A stretch of DNA of 64,000 nucleotides from a bacterium. GTDB lineage: Bacteria; UBA8248. Made by a program: the position numbers and the translations under genes. The notes under the pieces were generated by a model, which saw only the letters and a program-made list of their open reading frames with translations, was not told the DNA's origin and ran no database searches. Shown here one piece after another: positions 3,905 through 60,614 of the stretch. The stretch spans positions 1,792,001-1,856,000 of the forward strand of contig CBDBEV010000001.1 of NCBI GenBank assembly GCA_965204535.1, given 5' to 3'. The first letter of the stretch is position 1; each line of letters opens with the position of its first letter.

Positions 3905-4524
3905 TGGCGGGAAGGCGGCCGGCGGGCCGAAGCCTGCACCCCTGTTGCAAACAAGCAGGACGGCGGCCCGCGATGCCCGGACCTGATGGGGTTGTTGAAA
4001 AAGCCTTTGTCAAAGGAGCAACCCCCCCTACCCCCCCTTGTCAGGGGGGCAAGAAAAAACAAAAACCCCTCTACCGGCGGCGGGCGTCGCCTTTTTATAC
4101 CCCCCTGACAAGGGGCTGTTGAAAAAGTCCCTGCGCACCCCTCGAATGGCGACTGTAGGGGTCAGACATATATGTCTGACCCCGTGGCCGCCCGTCGGTC
4201 GTATTCACCCAGATACAGCAAGGGCGCGAGGGCCACGGACAGGCACGGGGGCCTGTCCCTACAAAACCAACCCCCCCTACCCCCCCTTGTCAGGGGGGTA
4301 AAAAAAGAAAACCCCACAAAAAAAGGATCAACTCCCCCCTTGAGGGTCTGGCTTCCCGAGGGGAAAGCCAGACGATGAAGCCGAGCGGTTTGTGCGAAGG
4401 CTGAATCGGTGGGGGGTAAAATGCGTTTTATCGCCAGTCCGAATTATACCCCCCACCGAATCGCTTTCGGGCTTACGCCCTCAGCTCTTCGTCTGGCTTT
4501 CCCCTCGGGAAGTCAGACCCTCAA

Positions 4525-6037
4525 GGGGCTGTTGAAAAACCCCTGGTTTTATGATCGTATGGAGTTATCCCCCCTCGCCCGAGATGGGAGATTCCCCGAT
4601 GTTGGACCGCAAGAGGCGCGGGCAGATGGAATTGTTCGTGGCCGGTTCGCTGGAGCAGTTGATTCCCGAAGATTACATATTGTTCCGGGTGAACCGCGTA
4701 CTGGATTTGAGTTGGCTTCGCGAGGAGGTGGCGGAGTGCTATTGCGCGGACAACGGTCGACCGGGGATCGACCCGGAAGTGGTGGTGCGGTTGATGCTGG
4801 CGGGTCTTCTGCTGGGCCACGTTCACGACCGGCATCTGCTTCGCGAGGCGCAGGTGAACCTGGCGATCCGGTGGTTCATCGGTTACGAGCTGCACGAGGA
4901 GTTGCCGGATCATTCGAGCCTGACGCGGATTCGCCAGCGGTGGGGGGAGGCGCGGTTCAAGGAAATATTGCGCCGCACGGTTCAGGCGTGCCTGGAGGCG
5001 CAGGTGGCGAAGGGAGAAGTGGTTCACATGGACGCGTCTTTGATACGCGCGGACGTGAGTTGGGAGAGTCTGGCGGCGCGCCACGCGGAGAAGGTGGTGC
5101 GGGAGAACGACTCGGCGGATGAGGCGGGGAAGAAGGGCGGCGGGGGTTCGGGTCCGGTGAGCCGTACGGACCCCGACGCGCGCCTGGCGCGCAAGAGCGC
5201 TCGGGCGGGGTTCGAGCCGAGCTACAAGCACCACGCGGTGGTGGACGACGAGCGGGGCGTTGTCCTCGACGTAGAGGTGACGGCGGGGACGTTGAACGAG
5301 CGGGAGATGATGGAGCCGCAGTTGGATGCGGTTTGCGAGCTCACGGGTCGCGCGCCCGCGGTGGTGACGGCGGATAGTGGTTATGCGTACTCGAAGGTGT
5401 ATGCGGGATTGGAGCGGCGGGGTGTTGATGCGCTGATACCGGCGAAGAAGGAGCCTTCCCAGAGCCGTGTTCCGCTGCAGTTGTTCCGCTACGACGAGCG
5501 GCACAAGGTGGTGAAGTGTCCGGGCGGCAAGACGCTGCGTCCCCGGAAGGAGACGGAGCGGGGGCGCTACTATGGTTCGAGGACGCGCGATTGCGCGGGC
5601 TGCGCGCTGAGGTCGGATTGTCTGCCCAAGTCGCACACGAGCAGGACGGTGCTGATTCCGCATGAATATCCGGCGCTGTTGCGCGCGCGCCGGCGGCACG
5701 CGCGCCGGGGGGAGGAGGAGGGCCGGCTGTGGCGCCGCCACATGTCGCGTTCGGAGGGCTACCACGGCGAAGCGAAGAGTCGGCACGGACTGGGGCGGGC
5801 GGTGCGCCGGGGCCTTGCGAACATGAGGATCCAGGCCTACCTGACGGCGACTGCGGTGAACCTCAAGCGGCTGGCCGCCGCTTTTGCGGCGGATATATTC
5901 GCTCTGTGGAGGGCCTGGGCCGCCCGGAGACGCCGTCTGCGCGCATATCGCGGCCTCACGCGCCGATTGGGCTTCCTATCCCAAGCCGCGTGAGCCGCCA
6001 TACCCCCTGCTTCAAAACAGGGTTTTTCAACAGCCCC
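4525..6037 (+). mobile_element. IS1182-family insertion sequence
   Basis: Perfect terminal IRs GGGGCTGTTGAAAAACCC (4525) and GGGTTTTTCAACAGCCCC (to 6037) flank a single transposase ORF. Confidence 0.9.
4599..5993 (+). CDS. IS1182-family transposase
   Basis: DUF772-like N-terminus (GRPGIDPEVVVRLML, IRWFIGYELHEELPDHSSL), HMDAS, ADSGY, CPGG...CAGCALRSDC, SEGYHGEAKSRHGL. Confidence 0.92.
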   Translation: MLDRKRRGQMELFVAGSLEQLIPEDYILFRVNRVLDLSWLREEVAECYCADNGRPGIDPEVVVRLMLAGLLLGHVHDRHLLREAQVNLAIRWFIGYELHEELPDHSSLTRIRQRWGEARFKEILRRTVQACLEAQVAKGEVVHMDASLIRADVSWESLAARHAEKVVRENDSADEAGKKGGGGSGPVSRTDPDARLARKSARAGFEPSYKHHAVVDDERGVVLDVEVTAGTLNEREMMEPQLDAVCELTGRAPAVVTADSGYAYSKVYAGLERRGVDALIPAKKEPSQSRVPLQLFRYDERHKVVKCPGGKTLRPRKETERGRYYGSRTRDCAGCALRSDCLPKSHTSRTVLIPHEYPALLRARRRHARRGEEEGRLWRRHMSRSEGYHGEAKSRHGLGRAVRRGLANMRIQAYLTATAVNLKRLAAAFAADIFALWRAWAARRRRLRAYRGLTRRLGFLSQAA

Positions 6038-6291
6038 GACAAGGGGGGGTAGGGGGGGTTGCCTTTATCCCCTGAGGAGGAGGGTTTTCAACAGCCCCGG
6101 ATAAGGCGCGCTTGTGCCGCCTCCTTGGATTCACTATCATGGTCGGCATCCATATTTCATGCGAGTCATGCGCCGCTTGAGGAAGTCCGGTCTATTCGTT
6201 TTCTCTTTCGTTGCGAGAAACCACGAATAAAAGGAGCCGAATACACGGAATCGAAACATAATCTGGGAAAACTGCTCATGGAGGAAGCCCG

Positions 6292-10284: not shown

Positions 10285-10857
10285 GGGGTTGTTGAAAAAG
10301 TCCCTCAAGGGGGAGTGGTTTCTCCCGAAGGTTTGTAGGGACAGGCCCCTGTGCCTGTCCGACGTCATGAGGTTGGATATAAACGACGGGCGGGCACGGG
10401 GGCCCGCCCCTACGAAAAATGTGGTTCTGTAGGGGTCAGACATATATGTCTGACTGTGTGTCCTCCCCCCGCACTCGGGATGAGGGTGTTTTTAGTTTTC
10501 CTCACCCTGAGTAGCCGCCGAAGGTCAAACGCGACTGAGAAAGGAGCGTTTGTATCGAAGGATGGAGGCGTCTCCCGGCCGGCGAGAGCAATCGCTTCCG
10601 CATTGGGCGCGATTGACCTTCGATACGCGGCTTCGCCGCTACTCAGGATGAGGCGGTGCGGTTTTGTTCGTCATTCCGGCGAAAGCCGGAATCCATTTGC
10701 GGATGCGCGTGAATACACGGCGGCGTTTCATTCCCCCGCTGATGCGCGGGAACCCTGACGAAAGGCAAAAGGCGTAAAAATGGATTCCGGCTTTCGCCGG
10801 AATGACGGGCAGAAGGCGAAAATCACGCCTTTCTACAGGGACTTTTTCAACAACCCC
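10285..10857. repeat. IS-end-bounded mosaic of palindromic repeats (MITE-like)
   Basis: GGGGTTGTTGAAAAAG (10285) ... CTTTTTCAACAACCCC (10857), enclosing GTAGGG..CCCTAC, CTCACCCTGAGTAG..GTATCGAAGG and CGTCATTCCGGCGAAAGCCGGAATCC units. Confidence 0.82.
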
Positions 10858-14176: not shown

Positions 14177-14557
14177 GGGGTTGTTGAAAAAGCCCCTCGG
14201 GGTGTGAGGGAATCCCGATCATCGGATTGTTCACCGTAGCGGACAGGCCCCTGCGCCTGTCCGTGGCCCCCGTGCCTGTCCTGACGAAGGACAACCACGG
14301 GAATAGACATCTTCGATAAGGGCGGCCACGGGGGGCCGCCCCTGGAAAAGCAACCCCCCCTACCCCCCCTTGACAGGGGGGTATAAAAAGGCGACGCCCC
14401 CCAACGAGGAGGGTAGAAAAAAACCTGACAAAGGGGGTATGAAAAGGCAACACCCGCCGCCGGCAGAGGGGCTTTTGTTTTTTCTTGCCCCCCTGACAAG
14501 GGGGGGTAGGGGGGGTTGCCTTTATCCCCTGAGGAGGGGAACTTTTTCAACAACCCC
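14177..14557. repeat. IS-end-bounded mosaic (GTAG-type plus family P repeats)
   Basis: GGGGTTGTTGAAAAAG (14177) ... CTTTTTCAACAACCCC (14557); P repeat at 14352-14517. Confidence 0.85.
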
Positions 14558-18800: not shown

Positions 18801-19976
18801 TTGTCCCCGCAAAACGACCCGCAGGAGCATCCCCGTCTCCTCGTCCCCGAGGAGGAAAGAGCGGATTTAGAACGCGAGGCCGCCGATCTGCCTCACATCT
18901 CCCTCGACGCCCGCCGGCTATGCGATCTCGAACTGCTCTTGAACGGCGGTTTCGCGCCGCTGCAAGGATATCCAAGCCAAAAAGACTACGAGTGCGTTCT
19001 CGAATCCATGCGCCTTCAAAACGGGGCGTTGTGGCCCATCCCCATCGTCCTTGACTTATCCGAGAAAGAGGCGAACAGGATCGAGAAGCGCTCCCGGCTC
19101 GCCCTGCGGGACGGCGGCGGGACGCCTCTCGCCGTTCTGGACGTGGAAGACATATGGCGAGCCGACTTTGAGCGGGAAGCGCAATGCGTATTCGACACCC
19201 TCGATCAGACCCACCCGGGGGTCAGGTATCTTTTCCGGGAAACCGGCCCCTTCTACCTCGGCGGCCGTTTGCGCGGAATCCGCCTGCCCCGGCACGCCGA
19301 CTTTCCCGAATATCGCAATTCCCCCGGAGAGCTGCGGGAGAAATTCCGGGCGATGGGATGGAAGCGGGTCGTCGCCTTTCAGACGCGCAACCCGATGCAC
19401 AGGGCGCACGTCGAGCTGACGAAGAGCGCCGCTTCCGAGAATGGAGCGAAAATACTTCTGCATCCGGTAGTGGGAATCACGAAACCGGGCGACATCGACC
19501 ATACGTGCCGGGTGCGCTGCTACGAGCACGTTCTCAGGCATTACGCGCCTGATTCCGTCACCCTGGCGCTATTGCCCCTGGCGATGCGGATGGCCGGCCC
19601 CAGAGAGGCCCTCTGGCACGCGCTCATAAGAAAAAACTACGGCTGCACCCACTTCATCGTGGGCAGGGATCATGCCGGCCCCGGCGTCGACGGCCGGGGT
19701 GAGCCTTTCTACGACCCGTACGCCGCCCAGGACTTGCTGAAAACCCACCAGTCCGAGTGCGGAATCGCGATGGTCCCGTTCCAGGAGATGGTCTACGCCC
19801 CGGATGAGGAGCGCTACCTGCCGGTGGATCGGCTCCCCGAAAACACCCGCATCCTCAAAATATCCGGCACGAGGCTTCGCGAAATGATGGAAAAGGGCGA
19901 AGAAATCCCCGGGTGGTTCACCTACGCGGAAGTCGCGAAAGAGTTGAGGCGTTATTCTTCCCCGAAAAAGTCTTGA
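18801..19976 (+). CDS. sat: Sulfate adenylyltransferase (ATP sulfurylase), no APS-kinase domain
   Basis: DLELLLNGGFAPL, VAFQTRNPMHRAH, MRMAGPREALWHALIRKNYGCTHFIVGRDHAG, ISGT. Confidence 0.93.
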   Translation: MSPQNDPQEHPRLLVPEEERADLEREAADLPHISLDARRLCDLELLLNGGFAPLQGYPSQKDYECVLESMRLQNGALWPIPIVLDLSEKEANRIEKRSRLALRDGGGTPLAVLDVEDIWRADFEREAQCVFDTLDQTHPGVRYLFRETGPFYLGGRLRGIRLPRHADFPEYRNSPGELREKFRAMGWKRVVAFQTRNPMHRAHVELTKSAASENGAKILLHPVVGITKPGDIDHTCRVRCYEHVLRHYAPDSVTLALLPLAMRMAGPREALWHALIRKNYGCTHFIVGRDHAGPGVDGRGEPFYDPYAAQDLLKTHQSECGIAMVPFQEMVYAPDEERYLPVDRLPENTRILKISGTRLREMMEKGEEIPGWFTYAEVAKELRRYSSPKKS

Positions 19977-20224
19977 GCCGCGCCCGCCGTCAGAACTCGA
20001 AGCCGTGGACGGGATCATGAATGACAATATCCACCAATCACATCCATAGGACAACAGGACTACAGAGCCGATGAGGGCGGCTCGATGCGACGTAGGATGG
20101 CGGAGATGGAGGGTCAATCGCGACTGAGAAAGGAGCGATTGCGGTTTGCGTCCGATGAGGGAGGCTGCGGAAATGCGACAAGGCTGCGGGAACTTCGGAT
20201 GATCCAGCAATCATGCCCGTATGG

Positions 20225-20317
20225 TGGCGGAGAGGGAGGGATTCGAACCCTCGAGGCACCTTGTGGGCACCTATACGATTTCCAGTCGTACTCCTTCGGC
20301 CTCTCGGACACCTCTCC
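20225..20317 (-). tRNA. tRNA-Ser (GGA)
   Basis: Minus strand GGAGAGGTGTCCGAGAGGCCGAAGGAGTACGACT-GGA-AATCGTA, long variable arm, GGTTCGAATCC, ends CTCTCCGCCA. Confidence 0.96.
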
Positions 20318-20415
20318 GCGGGAGTGGGGCCGTCGCGCGAATCACGAACGGGCCATGCGGAGTTTTGTATATCACGGACGAAGCCGGAATGTCAGTCCGC
20401 CACCCCAATCGCGCC

Positions 20416-20444
20416 TTGACTTTTCGCCTCGTTTTCCCGATGAT
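20416..20444 (+). promoter_or_regulatory. Putative sigma70 promoter of the small transcript
   Basis: TTGACT-17 bp-GATGAT. Confidence 0.5.
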
Positions 20445-20450
20445 TCCAGG

Positions 20451-20620
20451 TACGTCAGAAAGGAGGTGATCCTAATATGAAAATACACTGTAGGGACGAG
20501 GTGACCGGCGCCTAGGGGAGAAGCCCTCGGGAGATTCCCACGGGTTTATCTTCGCCCAGGCGAATCCCCACCAGGTCACCGAACCATGAAAGACCCCGGT
20601 CCGAAAGGGCCGGGGTTTTT
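20451..20620 (+). ncRNA. Candidate structured small RNA / mini-ORF mRNA (MKIHCRDEVTGA*, 20477-20515)
   Basis: Extended SD AGAAAGGAGGTGATCC, 12-codon ORF, nested stems (GGTGACC/GGTCACC; GGGGA/TCCCC; AAGCCC/GGGTTT; TCGCC/GGCGA) and a terminator. Confidence 0.55.
20589..20620 (+). terminator. Rho-independent terminator
   Basis: GACCCCGGTCC-GAAA-GGGCCGGGGTT followed by a T-run. Confidence 0.85.
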
Positions 20621-20689
20621 CACGTCGCGCCATATGAAAACTTTCATCTTTCACGCAATTTATCCTCAAAGCATAAGGAGCAGGATTCG

Positions 20690-21148
20690 ATGCCGCAGAC
20701 GAGTTGGACGGTCTATCTATCCGGAGAAGTGCACACCGACTGGCGCGAACGCATCACCGAGGGCGCGGAGAGGGCGGGCCTGCCGGTCACCTTCCTCGCC
20801 CCCGTCACGGACCACGACGCGAGCGACGATTGCGGCGTGTCGATTCTCGGCGGTGAGGAAAAGCCGTTCTGGAAAGACCGCAAGGGCGCGGGCGTGAACG
20901 CCATCAGGACGCGCACGCTCATCGAGAAGGCGGACGTGGTGGTCGTGCGCTTCGGGGAGAAATACAGGCAGTGGAACGCCGCGTTCGACGCGGGCTACGC
21001 GGCGGCTCTGGGGAAAGCCCTCATCACCCTGCACGACGCGGGCCACACCCACGCGCTCAAGGAAGTCGACGCCGCCGCCATGGCCGTGGCCGAAGAACCC
21101 GAACAGGTGGTGCGCATTCTCAACTACGCCATCAACGGGACTTTGTAG
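20690..21148 (+). CDS. YtoQ family protein
   Basis: VYLSGEVHTDWRE, HDASDDCG, NAIRTRT, RFGEKYRQWNAAFDAG, HALKEVD. Confidence 0.88.
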   Translation: MPQTSWTVYLSGEVHTDWRERITEGAERAGLPVTFLAPVTDHDASDDCGVSILGGEEKPFWKDRKGAGVNAIRTRTLIEKADVVVVRFGEKYRQWNAAFDAGYAAALGKALITLHDAGHTHALKEVDAAAMAVAEEPEQVVRILNYAINGTL

Positions 21149-21296
21149 CAGGCGTATACGGGGTTGGTAAAAATCCTGTCCACCCTTCGAGATTGTTCGC
21201 CGTAGGGACAGGCGCAGAGGCCTGTTCGGAACCCCTGTGGTCGCCCGATTGGCTGGCAAGAACGAGGGTTTGACGCGACCGGGGAGAGAAGATTTT

Positions 21297-21512
21297 CACT
21301 CCCCCCTTGAGGGGGCTGTTGAAAACCCCCTCGCCGAGGGACATTGCCTTTAGCGGGAAGGCCGCTTTCGCGCGAACCCCCGACCTCCCTCTTTGAAAGC
21401 AACCCCCCCTACCCCCCCTTGTCAGGGGGGCAAGAAAAAGCAAAACCCCCTCGACTTGGAGGAGGCGCGTCGCCTTTTTATACCCCCCTGACAAGGGGGG
21501 GTAGGGGGGGTT
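21297..21512. repeat. Q-repeat half plus IS end plus spacer plus family P repeat
   Basis: CCCCCCTTGAG|GGGGCTGTTGAAAA at 21312; P repeat at 21401-21512; 21312-21430 matches the reverse complement of 60495-60614. Confidence 0.82.
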
Positions 21513-21596
21513 GCTTTTCCAGTCAAGAGAGGTGTTCCCACTCTCCCCGATCAGGAACGATCTACACAGGAACACATCGGGGTTTCACAGGCTGCC

Positions 21597-25511: not shown

Positions 25512-26516
25512 TTACGCCTCGACGACGATCTTGCCCATCTGCTGGTTCGACTCCATGTACTTGTGCGCCTCCACCATGTCGTCGAGCGGGAACGTCCTGG
25601 CGACGATGGGCCTGAGGGCGCCCGATTCGAGGCCCTCGTAGATGAATTTCTTCCCCCGCTCCCTTTTTTCCGGGAACTTCGTGATCTCCATGATCGTATA
25701 GCACCGGAAGGTCAGCCCTTTCCGCAGAGCCGGGAACAGGGGTATCTCCGCAGCCTCGGGCGAGAGGCGGCCGTAGAGGAAAATCGAGCCCTGGTACGCG
25801 GTCGCGTCGGCGAGTTTCGGCAGCGTCGACCCGACGACGGGGTCGAAGACGACGTCGGCGCCCGCGCCGTCCGTGATATCCATCACCCGCCCGGCCAGAT
25901 CCTCATCGTCCGTCACGACGACGTGGTCCGCGCCCGCGCCGAGAATGAAATCCTTCTTGCCCGCCCCGCGCGTCGTGGCGATCACCCGCGCGCCGACCGA
26001 TTTCGCAATCTGGATCGCCGCGACGCCGACGCTGCTGCTCGCCGCCGTGAGCAGGACGGTATCCCCCTCCTTCACGCCCCCGAATTCGATGAGCGCGCCG
26101 TATGCGGTGAAATACGGCATCCAGATGGAAGCGCCCTCGGCGGGCGAGAGGTTATCGGGATAGCGGGCGGCGGCGAACGCCGGCACGACCGCCTGCTCGC
26201 CGCACACGCCGTGCTCCACCATCGAGAAACAGGGAATCGTGCTCACTCGGTCCCCGACCGCGAGGCCCTCTACGCCCGGGCCCACGGCGTCTATCGCCCC
26301 GCAGGCCTCATAACCGATGCGGGAGGGGAACACCGGCTTGTCGTGGTAGCGGCCCTCCCGGAAGAGAATCTCCGCCCGGTTGAGCCCCATCGTCTCCACG
26401 GCGACGCGCACCTCGCCCTCCCCCGGCTCCAGATCAGGAACTTCCGCCACGCGGAGCACGTCCGCGCCGCCCAACTCGTCGAACAAAACCGCTTTCGGCA
26501 TTCTCTCATCCTCCAT
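25512..26516 (-). CDS. MDR-family NADPH:quinone oxidoreductase (copy A)
   Basis: GLNRAE, IGYEACG, TAASSSVG, MESNQQMGKIVV. Confidence 0.88.
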   Translation of the reverse strand: MEDERMPKAVLFDELGGADVLRVAEVPDLEPGEGEVRVAVETMGLNRAEILFREGRYHDKPVFPSRIGYEACGAIDAVGPGVEGLAVGDRVSTIPCFSMVEHGVCGEQAVVPAFAAARYPDNLSPAEGASIWMPYFTAYGALIEFGGVKEGDTVLLTAASSSVGVAAIQIAKSVGARVIATTRGAGKKDFILGAGADHVVVTDDEDLAGRVMDITDGAGADVVFDPVVGSTLPKLADATAYQGSIFLYGRLSPEAAEIPLFPALRKGLTFRCYTIMEITKFPEKRERGKKFIYEGLESGALRPIVARTFPLDDMVEAHKYMESNQQMGKIVVEA

Positions 26517-26577
26517 CCTTGTCTATGAATTTGAACGAACCCTTGCAGAACATTCCCGCCCGCTCATACAGACCCGC

Positions 26578-27567
26578 CTACACCTCGACGACGATTTTGC
26601 CCATCTGCTCGTTCGATTCCATGTACTCGTACGCCCCCACGATGTCGTCGAGCGGGAACGTCCTGGCGATGACGGGCTTGAACGCGCCCGACTCCAGACC
26701 GTCATAGATGAACCTTTTCGCTTCCTCTCTCAACCTCGGGTCTCTGGAAATTTCCATTATCGTGTAGCCCCGGAAGGTCAGGCCTTTCCGGATGGCCGGG
26801 TAGAGGGGGATCACCGAATCATCGGGCGAGAGATGACCGTAACAGAAAATCGTGCCGTGGTAGGCGGCCGCCTCGGCGAGCTTCGCCAGATAAGACCCGA
26901 CGACGGGGTCGAAGGTGACGTCAGCACCTGCGCCGCCCGTATGCTCCAGCACGGACTCCGCCAAATCCTCCGCATCCGTCACGACGACGCGAGCAGCACC
27001 GATGTTCAGGAGAAAATCCTTCTTCCCCGCTCCGCGCGTCGCGGCGATGGGCCGCGCACCCAGCGAACGCGCGATCTGGATCGCCGCAATGCCGACGCTG
27101 CTGCTCGCCGCGGTGATCAGGACGTTGTCGCCTTTCTTCACCCGCCCGTATTCGACGATCGCTCCGTATGCGGTCATGTACTGCATCCAGACGGCCGCAG
27201 CCTTGACCGGCGTGAGGTTATCCGGGTAGCGGGCCGCGGCGAACGCCGGCACGACCGCCTGCTCGCCGCACACCCCGTGCTCTATCATCGAAAAACACGG
27301 TATCGTGCTCACGCGGTCCCCGACCGCGAGATCCCCCACGCCGGGGCCTACCGCGTCTATCGTCCCGGCCGCCTCATAGCCGATTCGGGAGGGGAACTCC
27401 GGCTGTACGTGGTAGACGCCCTCGCGGAACATGATCTCCGCCCGGTTTATCCCGAGCGCTTCGACCTCGATGCGCACCTCGCCCTCCCCCGCCTCGAGAT
27501 CCGGAACCTCGGCCACGCGGAGCACGTCCGCACCGCCCAGCTCGTCAAAAAGAACCGCTTTCGGCAT
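26578..27567 (-). CDS. MDR-family NADPH:quinone oxidoreductase (copy B)
   Basis: Same motifs as copy A; tandem paralog. Confidence 0.88.
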   Translation of the reverse strand: MPKAVLFDELGGADVLRVAEVPDLEAGEGEVRIEVEALGINRAEIMFREGVYHVQPEFPSRIGYEAAGTIDAVGPGVGDLAVGDRVSTIPCFSMIEHGVCGEQAVVPAFAAARYPDNLTPVKAAAVWMQYMTAYGAIVEYGRVKKGDNVLITAASSSVGIAAIQIARSLGARPIAATRGAGKKDFLLNIGAARVVVTDAEDLAESVLEHTGGAGADVTFDPVVGSYLAKLAEAAAYHGTIFCYGHLSPDDSVIPLYPAIRKGLTFRGYTIMEISRDPRLREEAKRFIYDGLESGAFKPVIARTFPLDDIVGAYEYMESNEQMGKIVVEV

Positions 27568-40335: not shown

Positions 40336-40540
40336 AACACCCTGATTCGCGAGAATTTTACTCGTCCAGTGAAAGAGCGATTGCGGGTTTCGTTATCGTA
40401 GGGGCGGGCCCCCGTGCCCGCCCGATGCGATGTCTCCGCTTGAAATCGTGGTGATGGATTCGGTGATTGTCCAAGACGGACAGGCACGGGGGCCTGTCCC
40501 TACGCATTCGGTGATTGCGTTTTTCGTTCGTCATTCCGGC
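40326..40540. repeat. IS-end-like sequence plus GTAG-type palindromes
   Basis: AGGCTGTTGAAACACCC overlaps the aminotransferase stop; GTAGGGGCGGGCCCCCGTGCCCGCCC ... GGACAGGCACGGGGGCCTGTCCCTAC. Confidence 0.7.
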
Positions 40541-54135: not shown

Positions 54136-54271
54136 AACGATTCTCCGCTGCGTGAAATCCTCTGATGCTGTTCCGCCCCTATCATGCCTCCCGCGCACGC
54201 GCTCCGCAACGGCCTTGCGCCATTGACGCCGCGCGAGACCCGGGGATGTCCTTCCCCCATCCACCGCTCAT

Positions 54272-54625
54272 GGGGCTGTTCAAAAACACCATCGAAGAGG
54301 AAGTGCCGCCTGGAAAACCAACCCCCCCTACCCCCCCTTGTCAGGGGGGTATGAAAAGGCGACGCCCGCCGCTGGTAGAGGAACTTTTGTTTTTTCTTGC
54401 CCCCTTGCCAGTGGGGCTTTCTTTTTTTACCCCCCTGACAAGGGGGGGTAGGGGGGGTTGCCTTTCCAGTCTAGAGGGCATCCTTCGATACGGCGCTTGC
54501 GCGCCTACTCAGGATGAGGTGGATAGAGCTTTTTCAACAGACCCCTCAAGGGGGGAGTGATTCTTCTCTCTCGCCGGTAGGTAATATACACTGAATCTCG
54601 AAAGAATGACTTTTTCAACAACCCC
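54272..54625. repeat. IS-end-bounded mosaic (P, CTCAxCCTGAG and Q repeats)
   Basis: GGGGCTGTTCAAAAAC at 54272; right ends at 54544 and 54625; flanks CTCAT / CTCAA / CTTAT. Confidence 0.8.
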
Positions 54626-54641
54626 CTTATCTGGAGTCCTT

Positions 54642-57032: not shown

Positions 57033-57099
57033 TTGGGCCTTAAATGTGGCGAAAGGAGGGCGTTGCTAGTCTGCGCGTTTTTATTGCTCCCCCATTGAG

Positions 57100-57463
57100 G
57101 GGTCTGTTGAAAAAGGCCTGACTTCGTGATTCGGCGTATAGGGACGACCGGGGAGGGGACTGTAGGGACAGGTCGCGACCTGTCCCTACAGAACCACCGC
57201 GCCAGTCCGTAATCACTCCCCCCTTGAGGGTCTGGCTTCCCGAGGGGAAAGCCAGACGAAGAGCTAAGGGCATAAGCCCGAAAGCGATTCGGTGGGGGGT
57301 ATAATTCGGAATAGCAGTAAAACGCATTTTACCCCCCACCGATTCAGCCTTCGCATAAATCGCTCGGCTTCATCGACTCCCCCTCAAGGGGGGAGTGATT
57401 TTTCTCTCTCGTCGGTCGGTTACATACGACAAATCCAGAGTTCCGGGCTTTTTCAACAACCCC
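57100..57463. repeat. IS-end-bounded mosaic (GTAG plus family Q repeat)
   Basis: GGGTCTGTTGAAAAAG ... CTTTTTCAACAACCCC; the Q repeat at 57214-57397 shares blocks with 4331-4524. Confidence 0.83.
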
Positions 57464-57549
57464 CTCAAGGGGGGCTTTCCTTCCGATGATCGAAGAATTC
57501 CTCAAATGCCCGATCCGCTTGTGCGAGGAAAAGTGAATCCCAAACCACA

Positions 57550-60350: not shown

Positions 60351-60614
60351 GGGATTGTTGAAAAAGCCCCTGAGAGGGTAATGGCAACCCCTTGAATACG
60401 AAATCCCATAAAGCCAACCCTCCCTACCCCCCCTTGTCAGGGGGGCAAGAAAAAGCAAAATCCCCTCAGCCCGGTGAGGGCGCATCGCCTTTTTTACCCC
60501 CCTGACAAGGGGGGGTAGGGGGGGTTGCTTTCAAAGAGGGAGGTCGGGGGTTCGCGCGAAAGCGGCCTTCCCGCTATAGGTAATGTCCCTTGGCAGGGGG
60601 TTTTCAACAGACCC
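60351..60614. repeat. IS-end-bounded mosaic with family P repeat
   Basis: GGGATTGTTGAAAAAG ... GTTTTCAACAGACCC; P repeat at 60416-60526. Confidence 0.82.

Follow-up and report, generated by a model that had tools for sequence, protein, structure and literature searches.

A single-copy small RNA gene with an extended Shine-Dalgarno sequence and a 12-codon frame, a distant sequence homolog of Ms_IGR-5

Ms_IGR-5 (Rfam RF02471) is a small RNA of Actinobacteria, reportedly first described by Li et al. in 2013; in M. smegmatis, IGR-5 sits between MSMEG_5794 and MSMEG_5795. Rfam lists the family as an actinobacterial sRNA, without a reading frame or most of the fold described here. According to the accessible text of several studies, members are transcribed (bioRxiv 10.1101/2021.12.14.472595, PMC8079986, PMC8780764) and the RNA is a validated, uncharacterised sRNA (the same three sources; PMC10454040; PMC4974804). 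One of these, in its available parts, reports ribosome-protected reads on homologs in two mycobacteria and ribosome footprints on many non-coding RNAs (PMC4974804).

The small mRNAs rreB (Bradyrhizobiaceae) and rreR (Rhodobacterales) were described by Hahn et al. (RNA Biol 2016, PMC5711450), in the accessible part of the paper from Alphaproteobacteria only. According to that part, rreB co-sediments with the 30S subunit and is weakly translated, removal of the start codon lengthens its half-life from 10 to 37 min, and a 60-nt fragment accumulates (PMC5711450). Growth was unchanged when rreB was 20-fold overexpressed, at a level far under ribosome numbers; the RreB and RreR peptides are unstructured and unrelated to each other, and an rre-type gene in Azospirillum starts with ATG (PMC5711450). 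CC2171 (RF01867), a Caulobacter sRNA, appears in the accessible excerpts of two reports as validated, with its condition unknown (bioRxiv 10.1101/2022.01.24.477521; PMC11701678). Across the literature covered, with subscription journals mostly outside it, we found no paper connecting Ms_IGR-5 to the rre genes, no description of the helix that we call P0 below, and no mechanistic paper other than PMC5711450.

The locus and its match to the 16S tail

We analysed a 64,000-nt stretch of DNA (the window) from a bacterium of the lineage UBA8248, which contains a predicted small RNA gene between a divergent tRNA-Ser gene and a gene of the YtoQ family (Table 1). The initial annotation had described a promoter, a 16-mer, a short ORF and the motifs GAGGTGA and GGTCACC at this site, and we recovered all five where it had placed them. 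Homologs were collected with a genome-collection pattern (an extended Shine-Dalgarno sequence, SD, with GAGGTG 22-34 nt later) and a metagenome pattern (SD and GAATCC alone), each of which gave at least 120 matches. Pooling the genome and metagenome matches listed gave 188 distinct cores (hereafter the listed cores); these sets are rich in related Actinomycetota, and their members are not independent. Homolog taxonomy follows the MAG labels as printed.

Table 1. Features of the RNA gene and its neighbours (window positions).
Feature	Position	Strand	Remarks
Sigma-70-type promoter (predicted)	20416..20444	+	-35 TTGACT at 20416-20421, 17-nt spacer, -10 GATGAT at 20439-20444
Predicted transcript, 170 bases	20452..20621	+	+1 = A20452; ends inferred
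Helix P0, 5' strand	20453..20456	+	partner 20495-20498
SD1, extended SD, 16-nt complement of the 16S 3' end	20457..20472	+
12-codon ORF and TAG	20477..20515	+	ATG to TAG
Helix P0, 3' strand	20495..20498	+	+19 to +22 counted from A of ATG
SD2 core GAGGTG and helix P1, 5' strand	20498..20508	+	GAGGTGA at 20498-20504
Helix P2, 5' strand	20509..20516	+	contains last codons and stop codon; partner 20555-20562
Variable hairpin P3	20517..20554	+	fold and homolog comparison
Helix P2, 3' strand, then conserved unpaired NANUNC bulge	20555..20570	+	GAATCC at 20562-20567
Helix P1, 3' strand	20571..20580	+	GGTCACC at 20574-20580; terminal 16S anti-SD mimic
Intrinsic-terminator-like hairpin and U-run (predicted)	20587..20622	+	sequence, fold, pair counts
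tRNA-Ser(GGA), divergent neighbour outside the RNA	20225..20317	-
YtoQ-family gene, downstream neighbour outside the RNA	20690..21148	+	differs among relatives

The promoter was the single promoter-like site in 19900-21300, compared to 0.4 in shuffles (promoter scan), and TTGRC occupied the -35 position, 30-40 nt before +1, in 26/26 distinct cores of the phylum. The predicted first base lies 7 nt past the -10 box and lines up with the first position of the Ms_IGR-5 model; an A was found there in 168 of the 188 listed cores. As to the strong terminator that had been claimed, a conserved hairpin (9 bp, G+C-rich) with five U follows P1, and 96% of its cells were paired in 18 homologs; a simple terminator scan of the locus called 0 sites. 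Two homologous loci (L030, L033) carry an extra TTGAC past the terminator.

Four contigs from RNA runs of four studies cover the element (20464-20640, 20464-20758, 20471-20636 and 20438-20574). These contigs give neither strand nor transcript ends, and the runs, which lack a DNA control run, were picked because they hold the stretch. One strandless RNA contig (X2) extends from the element into ytoQ, and another starts 5' of the predicted +1.

SD1 is the exact reverse complement of the end of this genome's own 16S gene, which bears out the earlier claim that it complements the 16S tail; the gene was identified by visual inspection of its end sequence and of the tRNA-Ile and tRNA-Ala next to it, and its mature end is inferred from the gene. 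Genome-wide, 14 matches of at least 11 nt to the 16-mer were found, and the full 16 nt were reached twice, at this site and antisense to the 16S end. With a duplex of -29.9 kcal/mol, SD1 was the strongest SD in the genome and lay far beyond ordinary ribosome-binding sites, as had been proposed (best -21.1, median -8.0 kcal/mol over 8672 ORFs of at least 150 aa; best of the first four starts). Flanking sites left free by the search pattern also remained pairable with the 16S tail, A-to-G wobble changes included: among the 188 listed cores, position -1 was A/G in 188, -2 was G in 186, -3 was A/G in 179 and +12 was C/U in 173. A 16S remnant was ruled out, as identity ends at the 16-mer.

Elsewhere in the window, we observed a family of REP-like repeats between genes, with runs of G/C and inverted arms, in 6-13 copies per sub-family (1574-1770, 4018-4327, 6020-6110, 14320-14534, 21292-21529, 54252-54627, 57080-57475 and 60411-60543); many RNA contigs match the copies near 21300-21520. 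A second family, of short palindromic repeats roughly 28 nt long (D11 and D15), occurs at 4235, 10333-10413, 14235, 21200, 25419, 34782, 40396-40503 and 55478. A tandem pair of paralogous ORFs resembling oxidoreductases (334 and 329 aa) lies at 25512-27567 on the minus strand, their DNA 77-83% alike over parts.

Reading frame, second Shine-Dalgarno sequence and fold

The frame between the SD and the terminal stop was open in 187 of the 188 listed cores. Interrupting stops occurred in 1/188 of these cores in the ORF frame, compared to 144 and 167 in the other two frames, which share conserved letters with it. We took as start the first canonical, otherwise the first near-cognate, codon inside a 10-nt window. 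By this rule the 188 listed cores start with TTG (69), ATG (64), CTG (17) or GTG (16), more rarely with ATC (10), ACG (6), ATA (4) or ATT (2), and their ORFs are 11-15 codons long. The gap between SD1 and the ATG is 4 nt in the query.

The stop is located 9 nt past a nearly invariant GAGGTG (SD2), in the layout GAG GTG, three codons, stop. The 7 nt between SD2 and the last sense codon are predicted to permit pairing of SD2 with the 16S tail at termination. The stop fell exactly five codons after GAG in 85/120 genome matches listed. When GAGGTG was left out of the pattern, as in the metagenome scan, it was nevertheless in place in 85 of the 114 distinct non-16S matches listed, with the stop five codons on in 83; the 29 listed matches that lacked it were mostly unrelated. 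The partner strand of SD2 varied (CACC 65, CGCC 6, TACC 6, other 3; n = 80 homologs among the matches listed), and one SD2 variant carried a compensated change (L265). Because the partner strand changes while SD2 hardly does, SD2 appears to be constrained beyond helix pairing.

The locus fold had a z of -5.3, and 0/200 shuffles were as good. We observed a helix, P0, that the initial annotation had missed; it pairs transcript positions 2-5 with a four-base stretch whose last base is the G of GAG. P0 is testable without an alignment because the search pattern anchors both sides. Four perfect Watson-Crick pairs were present in 153 of the 188 listed cores, compared to a mean of 36.6 and a maximum of 50 in shuffles, and 513/564 free cells were paired, compared to 137-236 in slid registers (matches listed); related sequences inflate these counts. 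The perfect helices comprise 14 pair types, so P0 is not the product of one event. Its loop of 37-46 nt holds SD1, the start codon and an A/U-rich stretch, and has a GC content of 0.36 compared to 0.67-0.68 in the surroundings. Among the listed cores, the 3' strand began at +16 to +28, never closer than +16, a minimum on which it bears that the genome pattern was unable to return much shorter frames. P0 is thermodynamically weak in the query (probability about 0.13), and forcing it together with P1 and P2 gave a structure 8 kcal/mol above the MFE. Being marginal by energy in the query, P0 may need a ribosome or a protein.

P1, which is the GAGGTGA/GGTCACC helix proposed earlier, and P2, the stop-codon helix, were supported in 18 and 24 relatives with compensatory changes present. 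Both were also found in 80 of 83 distant cores among the matches listed, anchored by sequence alone; the other three were left out for a low anchor score. P2 cells were paired in 158/168 cases in the 24 relatives. The NANUNC bulge between P1 and P2 was unpaired and conserved in 80/83 of these listed cores, and the distance from stop to bulge, which spans P3, was 20-132 nt across homologs.

Two other stems from the initial annotation gave way to a different helix. GGGGA/UCCCC had a pairing probability of 0.0, lacked compensatory changes in sets of 18 and 24 relatives and reached 4 bp in 2/80 distant homologs among the matches listed; UCGCC/GGCGA, also at 0.0, needs a 2-nt loop as written. Close relatives still pair both stems (about 88% of cells, compared to 94% for the replacing helix), so the case against them rests on energy and distant homologs.

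The P1 3' strand has an alternative 7-bp pairing with SD1 (fold -72.1 compared to the MFE of -76.3 kcal/mol). In the 80 homologs listed, this strand fitted SD2 better in 43, both equally in 29 and SD1 better in 8; as it mostly favours SD2, occlusion of SD1 is possible, not demanded. Outside the query's phylum, GGAC in the ORF is complementary to a 3' hairpin loop, with compensated variants, a predicted pseudoknot; a complement to the ORF 4-mer was present downstream in 129/144 non-phylum cores among the matches listed. The motif is absent in the query's phylum, where the complement was missing in 18/19 anchored cores. Overall, covariation among the homologous sequences establishes helices P0, P1 and P2.

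We rejected two further ideas about the 3' part. A tRNA- or tmRNA-like 3' end was suggested by a half-T-loop-like bulge 11-12 nt before ACC; there is no 5' T-stem strand, an A follows CACC in 4/80, and the genome has its own tmRNA. For pairing of the bulge with 16S GGAU, about a quarter of the variants were unfit by eye.

Distribution and possible modes of action

With BLAST, the element turned up in 22/22 of the other genomes in its genus and, within the family, in one of the two further genera; other weak matches were partial. A covariance model built from 24 family members (R1) found exactly one copy in 43/51 genomes of the phylum; the eight genomes without a match were 67-99% complete. This search superseded a loose phylum pattern that had matched 48/51 genomes, chance coding matches included. 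R1 retrieved 68/97 loci supplied and matched 0/7 chance loci in coding sequence with the same pattern. The genome matches listed were mostly from Actinomycetota, and also from Acidobacteriota, Thermodesulfobacteriota, Myxococcota, Ignavibacteria and one Heliobacteriaceae; among them were 12 with Rhodobacterales-type 18-codon frames and, by eye, about eleven coding chance matches. On viral contigs, 68 pattern matches gave 55 distinct cores, 0 of which had the architecture.

We also observed extended-SD elements with a short frame and an internal GAGGTG in which the stop position or the frame differs: L163 and L168 (SAR86), L150 (Deinococcales), L103 (Fibrobacteraceae), L085, L127, and L071, L108, L109 and L172 (Planctomycetota). 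They probably represent further variants of this type, and R1 matched L108 and L172 weakly.

The upstream neighbour was tRNA-Ser, tRNA-Cys or no tRNA, depending on genus. A general link to tRNA genes was rejected (tRNA in the 600-nt flanks of 19/24 phylum loci and 0/32 from other groups). Downstream, most of the genus had ytoQ in the same orientation; over all loci the downstream genes varied (YtoQ, HemE, LexA, amidase, HTH-cupin, convergent genes), with 9/15 downstream proteins given a family. This variety points to a free-standing gene and not a leader. The stand-alone RNA of about 170 nt that had first been annotated is supported as a prediction, with its anti-16S-tail pairing and a frame that proved conserved. 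A LexA gene immediately follows the RNA gene in one family of the class (L179:644-1243 on the minus strand, L180-L182, L185); Pfam confirmed its identity for L179. In two genera, a small SRP RNA gene is located close to the element (L212:5557-5656, L213:2660-2758).

We propose by analogy that this is a translation-gated ribosome-docking RNA, and not a toxin, an attenuator or a conserved peptide gene, a reading to which we give an even chance. The 30S subunit would bind the long SD with high affinity and be slow to initiate, and the fold would be unzipped by the occasional ribosome that translates. P0 would pin the 5' end to the middle of the ORF and leave SD1, the start codon and the A/U-rich stretch in the loop. 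An initiating ribosome covers the mRNA to about +15; the structured rod would begin just past its entry site, at +16 or later. The 16-bp duplex would slow passage to elongation, as measured for rreB. Elongation would open P0 first and P1 and P2 afterwards, which would free the 5' end and SD2, and SD2 could re-engage the 16S tail while the stop codon is read, delaying release of the 30S subunit. The freed 3' strand could cover SD1, and the opened RNA would be turned over. RNA state or level would in this way report initiation activity, with the peptide as a by-product. Against the docking reading, we counted the start of the query clade, which is ATG and not a weak codon, and the low computed probability of P0 in the query; SD-induced pausing in elongation is disputed.

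Unlikely, in our judgement, is storage or sequestration of 30S subunits, in which the RNA would hold small subunits or initiation complexes inactive under stress, possibly clasped by P0, and translation would just release them. The genome's strongest SD with a second one at the stop, weak start codons in 124 of the 188 listed cores, and a P0 loop that never closes nearer than +16 are consistent with storage. The 30S trapping envisaged in the initial annotation fits the co-sedimentation of rreB and its stability on the 30S subunit; against it, in the same accessible part of that paper, stands the unchanged growth under 20-fold rreB, far below ribosome numbers (PMC5711450).

A ribosome clasp shared by several phyla is more doubtful. 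P0 would re-close after docking, the loop would ring the 30S neck and hold the initiation complex, and SD2 would recapture the subunit. Release would come under initiation conditions, for example relaxed start-codon fidelity, suggested because near-cognate starts occur in many lineages, and the ribosome would then unzip the RNA. If the clasp were true, Ms_IGR-5, this RNA and perhaps rreB/CC2171 would be one overlooked ancient bacterial translation-control RNA.

Slightly less probable again is a non-coding role, in which the structured RNA would bind a protein or act in trans via the P1-bulge-P2 rod or the freed anti-SD-like strand, with translation setting its level. The conserved unpaired bulge and the predicted pseudoknot of most homologs outside the phylum would suit such a role, as would the 3' strand of rreR-type loci (below) and the 60-nt rreB fragment reported in the accessible text of PMC5711450. 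No gene neighbour was conserved among the loci compared, however, and the pseudoknot motif is absent from the query's own phylum.

We give a shade less credit to a micropeptide made at very low expression and acting on a partner, with the long SD and the fold merely throttling it. Start, stop and length are conserved, Cys5, Glu8 and Val9 are invariant in 22 distinct family ORFs, and a pN/pS of 0.6 over these ORFs is compatible with mild peptide selection. The invariant residues are also invariant codons, however (TGT, GAG, GTG and TAG in 22/22), and across phyla, where length shifts between 11 and 15 codons, likeness is limited to the E-V encoded by SD2. This leaves the micropeptide reading of the initial annotation weak, and the RreB and RreR peptides, in the available part of PMC5711450, likewise lack structure and mutual relationship.

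A leader or attenuator whose upstream ORF controls ytoQ, also raised in the initial annotation, is very improbable. The position of ytoQ in the genus and the reach of contig X2 speak for it, and read-through of the TAG in the query would run in frame with ytoQ; read-through was rejected because that frame is disrupted in most relatives. The downstream genes also differ and are convergent in several genomes, and no antiterminator was seen in computed folds. A strong SD with a fold-back anti-SD strand is the typical look of type I toxin mRNAs with a sequestered SD, but this last of the earlier readings is hardly credible for a hydrophilic 12-aa peptide (GRAVY -0.4) with no minus-strand promoter by scan (one weak motif by a looser pattern), a single chromosomal copy in 43/51 genomes and the architecture in 0/55 distinct viral cores.

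Relation to Ms_IGR-5, rre genes and CC2171

At the gathering threshold, Rfam matched tRNA alone in the window. The query scored 22.3 bits against Ms_IGR-5, below the cut-off of 45, in a match that was collinear and full length (model positions 1-184). None of 41 relatives exceeded the cut-off, and one further ortholog from the query's family scored 47.5 bits (L187). Conversely, R1 found Ms_IGR-5 members that are over threshold (L060, 41 bits; L063, 35.2 bits). By sequence, the query RNA is a distant homolog of Ms_IGR-5, short of formal membership. The initial annotation, which could name no family, was therefore wrong in substance, the RNA being a below-threshold Ms_IGR-5 homolog and, by analogy, of the rre functional kind. 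The printed RF02471 consensus lacks P0, P1 and the GGAC/GUCC pseudoknot, and all six pairs of its SD helix form in 41 of the 188 listed cores; on these sequences, the family structure looks due for revision.

The gene is real and conserved and belongs to a known but unexplained class, not a new one. To that class we add another phylum, in which a single copy is nearly universal, as well as helix P0, a revised fold, an open weak-start frame and a fixed SD2. The covariation-backed fold (P0, P1, P2, the bulge and the optional pseudoknot), the frame and SD2 are specific mutation targets. The RNA is also a defined target for a 30S structure, which would show a natural RNA using the whole 16S tail.

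The query scored 27.5 bits against CC2171 (cut-off 75), a weak full-length match. CC2171 likewise has an extended SD at its 5' end, and the match rests on SD and terminator, whereas the core helix differs. Because the rreB cloning primer starts like the CC2171 consensus (accessible supplement of PMC5711450), CC2171 is likely, by sequence, to be rreB's family.

The rre genes resemble the query in size (about 165-170 nt), in having a tiny ORF and a 16-17-nt complement of the 16S tail, in their own promoter and terminator, which are predicted for the query, and in a context that is unconserved across groups; rreB adjoins a tRNA gene, as the query does. The rre complement extends into a GTG start, whereas the query has its 4-nt gap and then ATG. 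Twelve Rhodobacterales-type loci (L061, L086, L091, L097, L106, L110, L118, L125, L136, L145, L146 and L157) combine an 18-codon GTG frame with an internal GAGGTG and, downstream, a strand like the anti-SD, and from their sequences are likely rreR. Unlike in the query, their GAGGTG lies in another frame, and in 9/10 scored, SD1 is a better pairing partner than the internal GAGGTG for the 3' strand, which resembles the anti-SD. R1 found 0/12 of these loci, which we counted against the rre analogy. We suggest by analogy that the query RNA works like the rre extended-SD mRNAs, without common descent being implied.

Compared to Ms_IGR-5, the query lies outside Actinomycetota, starts with ATG, and has a plain terminator in place of a 3' hairpin with a GUCC loop (predicted pseudoknot to the ORF). 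The two share the extended SD, the 12-codon frame ending in GAG GTG, three codons and a stop, the stop-codon helix, the AAUCC-type bulge and the CACC strand.
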